Below, piece by piece: positions 19,088 through 62,903 of a stretch of DNA of 64,000 bases. A program made the translations under genes and the position numbers. Location of the stretch: contig CAWDTA010000001.1 in NCBI GenBank assembly GCA_963805085.1, forward strand, positions 32,001-96,000, given 5' to 3'. The stretch's first letter is position 1. Each line of letters opens with the position of its first letter. The notes below the pieces were generated by a model, which ran no database searches, had not been told where the DNA came from, and saw nothing but the letters and a program-made list of their open reading frames with translations. Source of the DNA: an uncultured Veillonellaceae bacterium (GTDB taxonomy: Bacteria; Bacillota; Negativicutes; JARBTT01).

Positions 19088-19106
19088 ATATACATATAAT
19101 AATATA

Positions 19107-19184
19107 GGCGATGGAGTTCGCCATTAAGTCCGTTTTATAGCGGTGATGACTCCTACTAGTACACTTTACTAGTAGGAGTCTTTT
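19107..19184 (+). ncRNA. Fluoride (crcB) riboswitch with terminator
   Basis: GGCGATGGAGTTCGCC...GATGACTCCTAC consensus; overlapping terminator gactcctactagt/actagtaggagtc-tttt; crcB downstream. Confidence 0.95.
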
Positions 19185-21710: not shown

Positions 21711-21964
21711 TTATCTTAATCACCTACTGCTAGAATGATCATGTTTTAAAGATGAGGTAAAATTACAAAGTTGTCAGAAATTTTAACTTTGTGTCTATCT
21801 TTTCTTGATATTTCCAGTGAAAATGTTTTCTCAATGTCCGTTATTTACGGAATAGTTCATAATCCAGTAAAATTTTATTAATTGACAAGTATAGGGAAAA
21901 GTGATAACATAGCTTTTGAAATAAATAAATTTTATTTCATCATACAAATGAATAATAGTATTGA

Positions 21965-22119
21965 GACAGGTGCCCGTGAGGGCTTAATAGGGAAATCGGT
22001 TAAATGCCGATGCGGTCCCGCCACTGTAATAGGGAGCGATTCCAAGAAATGCCACTGGAGGTTTTACCTCTGGGAAGGTTTGGAGGAGCGATGATCTAAA
22101 GCCAGGAGAACTGCCTGTT
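21965..22119 (+). ncRNA. Cobalamin riboswitch 1 (cbiK leader)
   Basis: AGGTG..AATAGGGAA..CCCGCCACTGT..GGGAAGG..AGCCAGGAGAACTGCC; promoter TTGACA-17-TAACAT at 21882; terminator 22192-22228. Confidence 0.95.
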
Positions 22120-22269
22120 AAAAAGTCACCGTTATGTACCTGCGAGCGATGGGGATGGGGATTAAATAGATATATTTTTTGATATCTAAATAAGCCTTTT
22201 TTGCTATGCAGAAAAGGCTTATTTTTTTATATTTATACTAGTATAATAAAATATTTAGGAGGAAATCGA

Positions 22270-23304: not shown

Positions 23305-23321
23305 TTAGAGAGAAAATTTGC

Positions 23322-23520
23322 TGTAATGCCAACGCGGTCCCGCCACTGTAATAGGGAGCGAATCCAAGATATACCATTGAAACATTTGTTTTGAGAAGGT
23401 TTGGATAAGCAATGAATTAGACTATTTTTCTAGACTATTTTTTAATGTCGAGATTTTTATTTTTACATTGGTATATCATACTTAATTAGCCTCTTTTTGC
23501 GCTCGGCAGAAAGAGGTTTT
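23322..23520 (+). repeat. Doubly deleted copy of a cobalamin riboswitch plus terminator
   Basis: Near-identical to 27183-27282 and ~27354-27452, but lacks the 5' AGGTG..AATAGGGAA segment and the B12 box. Confidence 0.85.
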
Positions 23521-27044: not shown

Positions 27045-27144
27045 GTTAATTTGTAGTTTGCTTTTGCGTGTTGACAATATATCATAGTAATGATAGTATA
27101 AATAGGAAGTAAGTTATTAATTTAACTTTTAATTGAATAAGAAG

Positions 27145-27302
27145 AGTTAGGTGTCCTTAACGGACTTAATAGGGAAGTTTGGTGTAATGCCAACGCGGTC
27201 CCGCCACTGTAATAGGGAGCGAATCCAAGAAATACCATTGAAACATTTGTTTTGAGAAGGTTTGGATGAGCAATGAACTAGAGCCAGGAGAACTGCCTAA
27301 TT
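27145..27302 (+). ncRNA. Cobalamin riboswitch 2
   Basis: Complete consensus; promoter TTGACA-17-TAGTAT at 27071; terminator 27420-27453. Confidence 0.95.
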
Positions 27303-27897
27303 GACGATCACCGATTGACCTGCGAGCGATGGGAAGGGGATTAATAGAGTAATCTATTTTTCTCGACTATTTTTAAATGTCGAGATTTTTATTTTTAGAT
27401 TGGTTTATTATAGCTAATTAGCCTCTTTTTGCGCTCGGCAGAAAGAGGCTTTTAGTATTTTGTCGAAAAGTTTTTCCCTACTTTTTAGCTTTTGTGGGGA
27501 AACATTGCTCATATATTAAATTTGTCTTGTTATGCTTTATTGCGTAACTTATGTTCCTACTTTCATAGGAACATCCTTTTTACAATAACAGTTTCTTTGG
27601 CTGTTATATATAGATAGCCTTGGGTTGAGTTGCCCCTCATAATCCAAGGCTATTGTTTTATTAATTTTAGATGGTTATATTGATCGAAAACCTTTCTAAA
27701 AGTAATTAGAAAGGTTTTTATATTTTTCATGTTAGGTTAGGCATCAAATGAAGTTTCTGTTTTTAGCTTATTTGCTTTTTAAGCATACAAAAAATAGAAG
27801 GTTTGTTTGCTTAACATGGGTTATATTATATAGTTTCATGTGTGTGATTTTGTGGAATGGTTAGACTTTTTAACAGTTGAAGGAGAAATGTGAGTAG

Positions 27898-29877: not shown

Positions 29878-29971
29878 GTAATGATAAAATTTGACAAGTA
29901 TAATAAAAAGTGCTACTATAATTTTGGGTTATGACATAATAATGTTTAACTATAAAATTTAATATTGTTGG

Positions 29972-30128
29972 AAATAGGTGTCCTTACGGACTTAATAGGG
30001 AAGTTTGGTTAGAAGCCAACGCGGTCCCGCCACTGTAATAGGGAGTGAATCCAAGATATACCATTGAAACGTTTGTTTTGAGAAGGTTTGGATAAGCAAT
30101 GAACTAGAGCCAGGAGAACTGCCTGTTT
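29972..30128 (+). ncRNA. Cobalamin riboswitch 3 (mut operon leader)
   Basis: Complete consensus; promoter TTGACA-17-TACTAT at 29891; imperfect terminator 30243-30280. Confidence 0.95.
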
Positions 30129-30390
30129 AGCAATCACCGTTAGACCTGCGAGCGATGGGAAGGGGATTACATGTAAGTTAAGTACTCTTCTCGGCATTTA
30201 TTTTGCCGAGATTTTTATTTAATTGTACTTGTTGATGAATAAGAGCCATTTTGCAATACGCAGGATAGGCTTTTTCTTTTTCCCATAAAATGTTAACTAA
30301 AAGGATAACGGATATTTGCATGATGATGTTAAAAGTGTAATTAAATGTTTACTTCGTTGTTACCTAAATGTATAGAAAGGATTGTGAAAG

Positions 30391-59561: not shown

Positions 59562-60197
59562 CTACCCTAGTAGCTGATGGAGCCCGATTAGCATTAATAA
59601 CGTACCAGACACTAGAGTAGCGTATTTGCCTAGCTGCTCAGCGGCATATTTTTCACCAACATAATTACCTGTATAAATAGTGATAAGGCTGAATATACCT
59701 ATAAGAGCAGCCTCTAATAATGGGGATATGCCGATTGCTCCTGCATCAAATCCACCGGCTAAGGCATTTATGGAAAGCGCAGTGCCTAGGATAATTGCTT
59801 CCCAGTGTCCAATATTCTGTGAATTATCCATATCAGCTCTTTCTGGATAATTTAAAATTTCTGTAGGTCCAATATAGATTCTCCCCCCTAATAGCTGTAA
59901 ATCAATAATTGGCTGATTGGTCTTTATTGCGGTAATGATTGGTTGTGTAAAGATCCAGGCTCCTACCCCGAAGAGCAAGATAGCTCCGATAATACTAGTT
60001 ACTTCTGGACTCAAATATACGATGATTGCTTTACCAATTTCACCAGATAACCATGTGGCAACTAAAGATATTGCGGATATAATGAAATTAGAAATATGAG
60101 AAATTCTGATTTTTCGAATCCCATAGGCAATACCTACCCCGAGATTATCCAAATTGGCTGCTATAGCTATTAAGATACTGATGAAAAAACTATTCAT
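59562..60197 (-). CDS. YtaF/MntP-family membrane protein (copy 2)
   Basis: Close paralog of 50644-51279. Confidence 0.85.
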   Translation of the reverse strand: MNSFFISILIAIAANLDNLGVGIAYGIRKIRISHISNFIISAISLVATWLSGEIGKAIIVYLSPEVTSIIGAILLFGVGAWIFTQPIITAIKTNQPIIDLQLLGGRIYIGPTEILNYPERADMDNSQNIGHWEAIILGTALSINALAGGFDAGAIGISPLLEAALIGIFSLITIYTGNYVGEKYAAEQLGKYATLVSGTLLMLIGLHQLLG

Positions 60198-60404: not shown

Positions 60405-60575
60405 TCATATAGTTGGTTTGTGACTCGCCAATTTGACAGTCCACCAACTTAATATTAAAGAAAAGTGGTCCCCAGCATCGCTGGTTAGTACCAAACTATT
60501 AGTCAGGTATCCGTCGATTAGTTTAACGGTAAATGTCAGCATAGTAACTAAAACTAATAATTTACTAGATCGCAT
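60405..60575 (-). pseudogene. Degraded CDF (CzcD-like) transporter 5' fragment
   Basis: AGGAG RBS; GYLTNSLVLTSDAGD..LSWWTVKLAS resembles CDF TM2 (SLALLSDAGH); truncated. Confidence 0.6.
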
Positions 60576-60741
60576 ATATTTTTCTCCTATAGTGGAATTA
60601 TTGATAGCAATGGAATAGAATAAAGTAATCCAATTGACGATAATGATTATCGGTATCGTGATTTTTTTACAAGGTTGGAACATCCTGCAGTAGATAGGCA
60701 TACAATACTGTGTAAAACCTTCATAAACCCTTCATAAACCC

Positions 60742-60886
60742 ATAAAGGGGAGTAGCTAACGGGTTTTTACCCGGAAGTAGAATCGACATACTGGCGAAAG
60801 CCCGGTTCTACTGGCAGAAAGACTGCTATAGCGAGACCTTTATTTCTAAGCTTTATAGCTCGGAAATAAAGGTCTCTTTATATTTT
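60742..60886 (+). ncRNA. yybP-ykoY (Mn2+) riboswitch with terminator, convergent on mntH
   Basis: AAAGGGGAGTAGC..TCGACATA..GCGAGACCTTT; P1 60742-48/60837-43; terminator 60833-60876 plus T-rich tail. Confidence 0.9.
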
Positions 60887-60966
60887 CCTATGAAATTCCG
60901 CAAGGTTTGTAGCTAGGTTGCCACCTACTATAAACCTTATGGAATACACATCATATATTTAGTTTA

Positions 60967-62244
60967 TTAAGATTGCCCGGTAAAAGTTAGGTACAATAAA
61001 ACAGCATTCAAAGCTATTATGATACTAACGATGCTCCAGCCTACAATATTTGTCAGGCGACTATTTTTAAAAGAGCCCATAATACTTTTTTTGTTTGTAA
61101 TAATCATCAGCGGGATAATCGTTGATGGTAGAGCAAAGCTTAAAATAACTTGGCTATAAACCAACGCTTCCATTGGGTTAATACCGGACATTAAAATTCC
61201 TAGAGCAGGTAGCATGGTCACGAGACGACGAATGCTGGCTCGGATATCAAAGCCTAAAAATCCTTTTAAGATGACTTCCCCAGCCATAGTGCCCACTGTT
61301 GAAGAAGATAGTCCAGAGGCCAAAAGTGCTATACCAAATGCTCCTGCTGCCATGTTTCCCATTAATGGTTGCAGCGTTAGATAAGCTTGCTCAATACCAT
61401 CTACATTTAACCCATTTCCATTGAAAGCGGCTGCGGAAACAATTACCATAGCGGCATTGACAACGAAGGCCATGTTCATTGCGATAAAAACTTCCATCTT
61501 AGCCATTTTGAGATGGTGTTTACAATCGCTTAGGCAGTCGGTACGTCGTGGTTGAACCAGTTCGGAATGTAAGTAAATAACATGTGGCATAACGGTTGCG
61601 CCCAGCATACCTACGGCTATTATTATACTGTCTTGGGATAGAATAGGAACAGCAGTATGATAGGCAACTTGACTCCAATCTGGAGTGGATTCAAACATTT
61701 CCCATACATAGGCAATACTGATTACGGCGACCATACCGGTGATGATTCGTTCAACGACTCGCTGACCATATTTTTGCAGATGGCATATTACATAGGTAAT
61801 CACACCTGTTAAGGCAGCCGACCACATTAAAGGAATTCCGAACAATAGATTAAATCCTAACACTCCCCCAAGAAATTCCGCAAGGTCTGTAGCCATAGCT
61901 GCCACTGTAGCTATAGACCAATATCCCCAATTAACCGGTCGGGAAAACATCTGTCCGCAATGCGCAGGTAAGTTCATCCCTGTGGCTATTCCAAGTTTTG
62001 CTGATAAAGTTTGCACAAAAATTGCCATAATATTACTCCACAGTATAACCCATAACAAATTATAAGCAAATTGAGAACCACCACTGATGTTAGTACCAAA
62101 ATTGCCGGGATCCATATATGCAACACTGACGACGAATGCGGGACCCATGTACTTCAATAGGCCTTTTGCTTTTTGCTTGATTTCTGCTCCGTCTATAGAT
62201 GGTAAGTCTATAGGAACACGAGACGCTAATTGTTGGTCTTTCAT
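60967..62244 (-). CDS. mntH: Nramp-family Mn2+/Fe2+ importer
   Basis: YMDPGN, ATDLAEFLG, GATVMPHVIYLHS, SQVILS. Confidence 0.95.
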   Translation of the reverse strand: MKDQQLASRVPIDLPSIDGAEIKQKAKGLLKYMGPAFVVSVAYMDPGNFGTNISGGSQFAYNLLWVILWSNIMAIFVQTLSAKLGIATGMNLPAHCGQMFSRPVNWGYWSIATVAAMATDLAEFLGGVLGFNLLFGIPLMWSAALTGVITYVICHLQKYGQRVVERIITGMVAVISIAYVWEMFESTPDWSQVAYHTAVPILSQDSIIIAVGMLGATVMPHVIYLHSELVQPRRTDCLSDCKHHLKMAKMEVFIAMNMAFVVNAAMVIVSAAAFNGNGLNVDGIEQAYLTLQPLMGNMAAGAFGIALLASGLSSSTVGTMAGEVILKGFLGFDIRASIRRLVTMLPALGILMSGINPMEALVYSQVILSFALPSTIIPLMIITNKKSIMGSFKNSRLTNIVGWSIVSIIIALNAVLLYLTFTGQS

Positions 62245-62674
62245 TTTTTCACTCCTCAGATGCTTTTGCTATCACCACATTTAAGTTGTAACACTGCAAA
62301 GAGTTTTGCAGTAGTACTATATAGAATATGACTTCATAATAGGATTTGTGAAAGTTTGAAGTAGACAAGCATAGGTGAGAAGTATGGTTTTATTGGTGTC
62401 ATATATTTATTAATAAAAAAAGTTGTTATCTAGACAGCTTTTTATGTTGAGTTTCTATAGTATAGTTGTAAAAACTAATTACAGTATATGACTTAAAATT
62501 GTTAGTAATTTGATGAAAACGTGAAATTATATAAGATTAATAGCCATAAATAAGTATCAATTGATAATTTGATTGAAATACATTAAATTTGATCGAATTT
62601 AACATTTGAATTAATTTTAATGAATCTATTGACAATAATTATTCAAGGTAGTATTCTAATAACGAACTAAATAA

Positions 62675-62903
62675 TTCTTCGTTAGGTGAGGCTCCTGCAT
62701 TGAACATAGGCCACTGCCCGGAAACGTCGAGAGACGCCAATGGGTAGAACAGGTATGACCGGATTAAGGTTTTACATAAGGTGGCTGAGTAACTGATTGT
62801 TAATTCTACGTCATGCAGTGTCAAAGCTCGTACGAGTGGGGAAGGTAATATAGTATTTGTATGCTTAGCAACGCCTTCCGAAATGTAGAGGCGTTGTTTT
62901 TTT
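62675..62903 (+). ncRNA. M-box (ykoK, Mg2+) riboswitch with terminator
   Basis: TTCGTTAGGTGAGGCTCCT..CTGCCCGGAAACGTCGAGAGACGCCAATGGGTAGAACAGG..AAAGCTCG; terminator 62868-62903; promoter TTGACA-17-TATTCT at 62629. Confidence 0.95.

Follow-up and report, generated by a model that had tools for sequence, protein, structure and literature searches.

The 64,000-nucleotide (nt) stretch of DNA from an uncultured Veillonellaceae bacterium analysed here (referred to as the window) carries on its + strand a manganese (Mn2+) riboswitch aptamer of the yybP-ykoY class at 60743-60842 and, converging on it from the opposite strand, the gene mntH at 60967-62244 (-), which encodes an Nramp-family Mn2+ importer of 425 amino acids and is the presumed target of the riboswitch. 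The product of mntH scored 392.4 bits on the Pfam Nramp model and 521.6 bits on the NCBIfam MntH model (cut-off 430), and its closest relatives, from Sporomusa rhizae (78% identity) and from metagenome-assembled genomes of Selenomonadales, place the organism in the Negativicutes. The genome contains five Nramp-family genes and only this one is accompanied by the riboswitch. About 80 nt separate the U tract of the riboswitch from the mntH stop codon (60967-69), a distance already given by an earlier sequence-only reading of this DNA. That reading had seen no + strand gene after the riboswitch, and the present analysis agrees with it: the stretch from the terminator to mntH contains no + strand open reading frame (ORF) of at least 40 amino acids. 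Antisense ORFs of 30-140 amino acids do occur within mntH in many of the related loci described below, but their starts and lengths disagree between loci, most have no Shine-Dalgarno sequence, and none of them is conserved. A small ORF or peptide as the target of the riboswitch was rejected on these grounds.

Every part of the aptamer (P1.1, L1, P1.2, P2, P3 with L3, and P4) could be seen by direct reading, so that it is complete, as had been claimed. P1.1 is formed by 60743-48 paired with 60837-42, the L1 motif GGAGUAG faces GAGA, P1.2 is present, P2 occupies 60760-73, P3 60777-60811 with ACAUACU in L3, and P4 60812-28. The Rfam search suggested by the sequence-only reading gave a significant match to RF00080 (yybP-ykoY, 'Manganese') at 60735-60827 (+), with 39.9 bits and an E value of 2.3e-9 in a 601-nt search; the E value of the same match in a search of the whole 4.2-Mb genome was 3.9e-9. 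About 70 model positions of the P4 loop are deleted in this alignment. Based on the model match, the motifs and the architecture, and with a score below the Rfam cut-off, the element is best described as a divergent yybP-ykoY subclass, for which a response to Mn2+ is predicted.

The pairing and covariation statistics were obtained from 23 aligned sequences of this subtype, belonging to 11 families. The 32 pairs of the aptamer are formed in 99.0% of the cells, compared with 26-44% in slid controls of the alignment, and compensatory changes were found at six pairs in P2, P3 and P4, a level of support that none of 500 shuffles reached. The terminator pairing is formed in 99.4% of the cells, with compensatory change at two pairs. 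The mean pairwise identity is 93% in the riboswitch core and 38% in its free loops, and the 226-nt region folds with a z value of -9.65 relative to shuffles. The paired cells, the compensatory changes and the contrast between core and loops argue that aptamer and terminator are under strong purifying selection. L1 (GGGGAGUAG facing GAGA) and L3 (ACAUAC) are invariant or nearly so in all 23 sequences; the conserved sequences of these two loops are known from crystal structures to form the metal site. At one position L3 departs from the Rfam consensus, an A being replaced by G (CAACAUAC to CGACAUAC), and this G is present in all 23 sequences.

The aptamer is followed by an intrinsic terminator at 60833-60887 (+), recognized by folding and in the 23-sequence alignment. 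Its stem of 15 bp (60833-47 paired with 60862-76, -26.0 kcal/mol) precedes the U tract UUUAUAUUUU at 60877-87; a simple terminator scan missed it. The 5' arm of the terminator includes the 3' strand of P1.1/L1, so the double use of the P1 3' strand noticed in the sequence-only reading was confirmed. Nearest-neighbour modelling favours the terminator state (-46.5 kcal/mol) over the aptamer state (-35.0 kcal/mol), for which reason termination is predicted to be the default; since the terminator competes with P1 for the shared strand, a P1 stabilised by the ligand would allow read-through, and according to the model the element is a transcriptional ON design. The canonical Mn riboswitch of the same genome (L002) has the same P1/terminator design and stands before a GDT1-family gene (PF01169, divalent cation/proton antiporter), which supports this logic. 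A third, weak RF00080 match of the genome (L003, G000 C2:816395-816472, -) scores 20.5 bits, has a terminator and stands before an IS200-type transposase gene; an insertion may here have parted a riboswitch from its gene.

Upstream of the aptamer a promoter-like region was recognized from the sequence and from comparison of the loci at 60677-60706 (+), with the weak -35-like element GGAACA at 60677-82, a spacer of 18 nt and the -10 box TACAAT at 60701-06; transcription is predicted to start near 60713. In about 19 of the 23 loci, as read by eye, a TAnnAT box preceded by CA occupies this position relative to the aptamer. The earlier statement that no clean promoter could be identified is thus modified in part: comparison brought out a conserved -10 box, while the -35 element is weak and a simple sigma-70 scan did not list the site. 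The leader just before the aptamer contains an 11-nt tandem duplication at 60719-60740 (+), two copies of CTTCATAAACC, recognized by alignment with the closest relative (L005), where the unit is present in a single copy.

The distribution of the layout was surveyed by a DNA search of 401 Negativicutes genomes with aptamer and terminator as the query. The subtype was found in 21 genomes (this one included) at 23 distinct loci, and at every one of them mntH was identified by tblastn on the opposite strand, its end lying about 200-260 nt after the start of the riboswitch. The gene is full-length at 20 loci, cut by the contig end at one and a relic at two, where only the last 95 codons or only the first 123 codons are left. 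A metagenome survey with a pattern made from the invariant aptamer columns yielded 23 stretches, four of them duplicates; one ends 125 nt after the motif and the remaining 22, which could be assessed, all show the riboswitch convergent with mntH. The conserved convergent layout, for which a survey of related genomes had been recommended, was therefore found throughout. No gene lies between riboswitch and mntH at any of the 23 genome loci or on any of the 22 assessable metagenome contigs, and accordingly none of these relatives has the intervening efflux gene that the sequence-only reading had named as the mark of an orphan relic. The flanking genes on both outer sides vary from locus to locus, which defines riboswitch and mntH as the conserved unit, and no conserved co-directional gene was found beyond mntH among the loci examined. 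As judged from these comparisons, the riboswitch has a single conserved downstream partner, the oppositely oriented 3' end of mntH. When 80 mntH loci from many phyla were scanned with a crude motif, which divergent aptamers can escape, a convergent riboswitch was seen in the five closest loci (Negativicutes) and in none of the other 75, a spurious match at L044 being discounted.

Some of the surveyed loci have features of their own. In family f27 (L013-L015) a canonical Mn riboswitch and a GDT1-family (PF01169) gene stand directly upstream of mntH and co-directional with it (about 1870-2830), and mntH is there bracketed by two Mn riboswitches, the antisense one at its 3' end. At L005/L092 (G034, contig 3) an internal deletion has left the last 95 mntH codons and the promoter region; the riboswitch is intact and is now aimed at a YtaF/MntP-family gene about 600 nt downstream. 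One riboswitch-linked mntH orthologue (G164:C1:2502076-2503314) appeared in the search output with one in-frame TAA and may be a pseudogene.

MntH orthologues, defined by at least 70% identity within the same 401 genomes, number 25 in 24 genomes; 20 have the riboswitch and five do not, and all five belong to family f6. At the four readable f6 mntH loci (L120-L123) there is no RF00080 match, and the place of the riboswitch is taken in all four by a convergent MntR-like gene of the DtxR family; its product scores 116.8 bits on the NCBIfam MntR model, under the equivalog cut-off of 138. In the MntH tree, from which three partial genes (G034a, G002, G152) and one partially aligned paralogue of the present genome (G000) were left out, f6 is placed among the riboswitch-bearing sequences as sister to one of them with a support of 0.998, the deeper nodes being weak (0.44-0.68). 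The simplest reading of these sequences is that the riboswitch was replaced by the MntR-like gene in f6. A palindrome, GTTAGCCATGGCTAAC, is present upstream of mntH at L120-L123.

Folding revealed a hairpin between the two convergent units (60896-60944). As described earlier, it lacks a + strand U tract; on the - strand it is likely the terminator of mntH. A stable hairpin is found in 22 of 22 riboswitch-mntH spacers, whose length is 67-140 nt. The spacer element, its loop included, has a mean pairwise identity of 68% across 15 loci, compared with 38% for the free loops of the same loci, and this difference suggests that its sequence itself is under constraint. The + strand 5' half and the loop of the hairpin (repeat at 60891-60940) copy a sequence inside mntH; local alignment placed the coding copy in codons 109-124 of the gene (WSIATVAAMATDLAEF, 61875-61920, -). 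In the window the repeat alignment scores 46, against a shuffle maximum of 26, and 21 of the 22 nt of the core are identical, and the single mismatch would be a G-U pair if the RNAs formed a duplex. The repeat is significant in about nine low-GC loci, with scores up to 72 against 25, and is absent from the high-GC group. Targeting of other Nramp genes in trans through the repeat was considered and rejected: it has no match in three of the other four Nramp loci, the ones examined, and matches the adjacent mntH only.

The repeat was unexpected; it could mark another site at which the antisense RNA pairs, or it could be left over from the origin of the module. At L097 (G002) the sequence passes directly from the riboswitch terminator into codon 123 of mntH and continues backwards from there; the arrangement looks as if the two copies of the repeat had recombined and the gene had been deleted from the repeat onward, the outcome expected from such an event. 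The repeat would make the importer gene deletable by recombination, as the arrangement at this locus suggests. A more speculative role, to which we assign a low probability, is that the first 60 nt of the read-through RNA would serve as a structured seed complementary to two sites of the mntH mRNA, so that a short RNA induced by Mn would pair through loop-loop contact and direct cleavage in the coding region without transcription having to cross the gene. The two sites would be the loop of the 3' hairpin and the coding site about 1 kb upstream.

The analysis demonstrates the aptamer and the terminator that competes with it, the lack of a + strand gene, and the linkage to mntH throughout the clade; from these we infer a + strand transcript, its Mn2+-dependent read-through and a lowered expression of mntH. 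The element is probably a Mn2+-responsive transcriptional ON riboswitch by which high Mn2+ would lead to antisense read-through and to repression of mntH, and the conservation of the convergent layout together with the lack of an intervening gene in the relatives supports this interpretation. According to the proposed mechanism the promoter with the -10 box at 60701-06 would start a + strand RNA. With little Mn2+ present, the terminator at 60833-87, being the more stable structure, would form, an RNA of about 170 nt would be released just before the mntH terminator hairpin, and mntH would then be read undisturbed. At high Mn2+ the docking of L1 and L3 would keep P1.1 closed and the 5' arm of the terminator unavailable; RNA polymerase would pass the hairpin at 60896-60944, which has no + strand U tract, and enter mntH in antisense direction. 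MntH synthesis could be lowered by collision of polymerases, by pairing of the antisense RNA with mntH mRNA and subsequent cleavage, or by both, and in this way an ON switch would yield OFF control of Mn uptake.

Several observations weigh against this interpretation. The aptamer score of 39.9 bits is under the RF00080 gathering score of 45, which is an annotation threshold and not a structural feature, and the 11 subtype loci with an RF00080 match reach 28.7-43.2 bits; a default Rfam scan of the window at gathering thresholds listed six other riboswitches and left this aptamer unlisted, the match appearing in E-value mode only. P1.1 and P1.2 are invariant and hence contribute no covariation support. 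Due to the invariant G in L3, metal affinity, selectivity, preference or threshold could differ from those of the characterised members. The weakness of the -35 element and the failure of the sigma-70 scan to list the promoter belong here as well, as do the intact riboswitches that stand beside a broken mntH at L092 and L097. The surveyed loci are kin, and their counts speak for one ancestral module retained across 11 families, not for independent origins. Furthermore, a MntR homologue is present elsewhere in the genome, so that Mn control of mntH could be explained without the riboswitch.

The surroundings of the two units contain further features. Upstream of mntH, in the region 62245-62352 (-), the promoter scan gave a promoter-like site (TTCACA, 18 nt, TATTCT at 62352-62323), and the leader contains the palindrome ACTGCAAA-N4-TTTGCAGT; motifs beginning with TCATATTCTA or resembling TCATATTCTAAAGTAGCTAC and GGGGTGATTGTAG recur upstream of mntH orthologues. 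These motifs and the palindrome may be an operator or a leader structure. The opposite strand just upstream of the riboswitch contains a 56-amino-acid ORF (60405-60575, -) similar to the N-terminal part of a cation-diffusion-facilitator exporter, with a Pfam match below the cut-off (E 0.0011); its DNA is conserved in G034 and it is probably a gene fragment. A neighbouring gene, 59562-60197 (-), belongs to PF02659 (MntP family). It was considered as the Mn exporter MntP and rejected, its product reaching 26.6 bits on the MntP model and passing the equivalog cut-off of the NCBIfam model of YtaF, a sporulation membrane protein (158.9 against 149.6 bits); consequently the locus is not clearly a Mn island. 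Divergent from mntH, an M-box (Mg2+) riboswitch at 62671-62847 (+; 153.6 bits) stands before a MgtE-like gene (63330 onward), and another Nramp gene is located just outside the window (G000 C1:96703-97755). Elsewhere in the window one fluoride and four cobalamin riboswitch matches lie within 11 kb (19098-19162, 21951-22132, 23315-23453, 27132-27314 and 29959-30140, all +).

The same observations can be read in other ways. The RNA might be a free-standing small RNA, in its terminated or short read-through form, which acts in trans or as a sponge, the adjacency of mntH reflecting co-inheritance or shared regulation. The terminated RNA would indeed be made constitutively, the spacer hairpin is conserved, its loop included, beyond the need of a plain terminator (68% against 38% identity), and its match to a site about 1 kb away inside mntH would suit pairing at a distance. 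However, the strict linkage to mntH (23 of 23 and 22 of 22) and the spacer of 67-140 nt are needed by a mechanism in cis and not by one in trans, and the repeat matches the adjacent mntH and, of the four other Nramp loci, none of the three compared; we regard an action in trans as unlikely. Antisense RNAs that stabilise their targets are known, and it is also conceivable that read-through is positive or neutral for mntH, either by 3'-end pairing that stabilises the mRNA or by a mutual-interference toggle in which mntH transcription silences the riboswitch promoter. The two terminators stand about 10-20 nt apart, and the - strand U tract of the mntH hairpin looks weak by eye in several loci, which makes read-through from mntH into the riboswitch unit plausible. 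More importer at high Mn would nevertheless contradict the logic of every characterised yybP-ykoY switch as well as the exchange with a MntR-like gene at the same place in f6, and this possibility appears quite improbable.

Still less credit can be given to two explanations that leave mntH out as the target. In one of them the riboswitch is an orphan relic of a lost or inverted efflux gene and its position beside mntH is accidental; the cation-diffusion-facilitator fragment just upstream would fit such a history, and the mntH deletion at L005/L092 has in fact made the riboswitch co-directional with a YtaF/MntP-family gene. This explanation is contradicted by the genome and metagenome surveys, where the same layout recurs in 11 families with different neighbours and no intervening gene at any locus, and by the strong purifying selection on aptamer and terminator, and it is very improbable. 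Equally remote is a hidden sense target, which would be either a + strand gene beyond mntH (here the M-box/mgtE unit from 62671 on) or a gene for a small protein on the antisense strand of mntH. It is true that from 60887 to 62700 the simple scan detected no terminator on the + strand, and that many loci have antisense ORFs. Yet the gene beyond mntH is a different one at each locus examined (mgtE here, an amino-acid permease gene at L011, none recognisable at L012, a GDT1 gene on the opposite strand at L013), a promoter-like site at 62629-57 belongs to the M-box unit itself, and the antisense ORFs show the variation in start and length and the frequent lack of a Shine-Dalgarno sequence described above. 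Repression of mntH by antisense read-through at high Mn2+ is the interpretation that we prefer.

The sequence-only reading had named precedents of riboswitch-controlled antisense RNAs for other ligands. The novelty of the locus is smaller than was assumed there: a yybP-ykoY riboswitch acting in antisense was already predicted in silico at the 3' end of the Mn2+ transporter gene cthm-CFE_2050 of Carboxydocella thermautotrophica, and it was proposed to prevent over-accumulation of Mn (Serrano-Gutierrez and Merino 2023, PMC9943018). The layout is the same in both cases: the 3' end of a Mn2+ transporter gene is faced by a Mn riboswitch encoded on the other strand. The Carboxydocella case concerns one genome of another class and is a prediction, with no conservation analysis in the available text of that paper, while the module described here is conserved clade-wide. 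The same paper counted five antisense-acting against 1,907 sense-acting yybP-ykoY matches, with no enrichment (P 1.00). Our literature search found no further Mn riboswitch antisense to a Mn transporter gene, with the reservation that S3 Table of PMC9943018 may list the other four antisense cases; the word Negativicutes is absent from its main text, and S3 Table may tabulate such a case. Clade-wide conservation, a dedicated sub-threshold subtype, the exchange with mntR and the repeat were not found in the available text of that paper. The sub-cut-off scores of the subtype may explain why surveys based on cut-offs report few antisense Mn riboswitches. The locus, as far as can be judged from its sequence and that of its relatives, is a well-supported example of a regulatory kind already predicted for Mn, the mechanism being what we infer for it.

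Compared with the canonical yybP-ykoY riboswitches, such as those in the yybP and ykoY leaders of Bacillus subtilis and in the yoaB leader of Lactococcus lactis, the element is alike in architecture, in the L1 and L3 motifs and in the ON design based on P1 and terminator. It differs from them in having no downstream sense gene, in being aimed at the 3' end of an importer gene, in its score below the Rfam cut-off and in the change from A to G in L3. The riboswitches of Bacillus subtilis and Lactococcus lactis are ON switches for exporters, a point on which PMC9943018 cites Dambach 2015; here, a metal-sensing ON switch would be turned against the importer of the same metal, in the form of a clade-wide module.

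At the time of PMC9943018, according to its abstract, no more than two antisense-acting riboswitches were on record: the S-adenosylmethionine (SAM, S-box) riboswitch at ubiG-mccBA of Clostridium acetobutylicum and the cobalamin riboswitch at pocR (AspocR) of Listeria monocytogenes. The mntH locus resembles them in the placement of the riboswitch, which faces the 3' end of its target from the other strand and in those systems controls a long antisense RNA, an RNA that is conjectural here. Three traits of an antisense riboswitch are found at this locus: in that placement it has no sense gene of its own, the layout is conserved across species, and the ligand class fits the target, MntH. The AspocR and ubiG riboswitches are OFF switches: binding of the ligand terminates the antisense RNA and thereby lifts repression, whereas the present one is predicted to be an ON switch, whose ligand would create the antisense RNA and impose repression; moreover, the ligand is a metal ion and the target its own importer. 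The locus is consequently a strong and testable candidate for a third ligand class of antisense-acting riboswitches with the opposite logic, and Sporomusa rhizae DSM 16652 (L011) is a cultured carrier of the module. Repression of mntH by the DtxR-family protein MntR has the same output, less importer at high Mn; there a protein sensor works at the promoter, while here an RNA sensor would work from the 3' end, and this genome has both a MntR homologue and the riboswitch. Since the MntR-like gene of f6 sits where the riboswitch lies elsewhere, the swap offers a natural comparison of the RNA and the protein solution to the same control problem.

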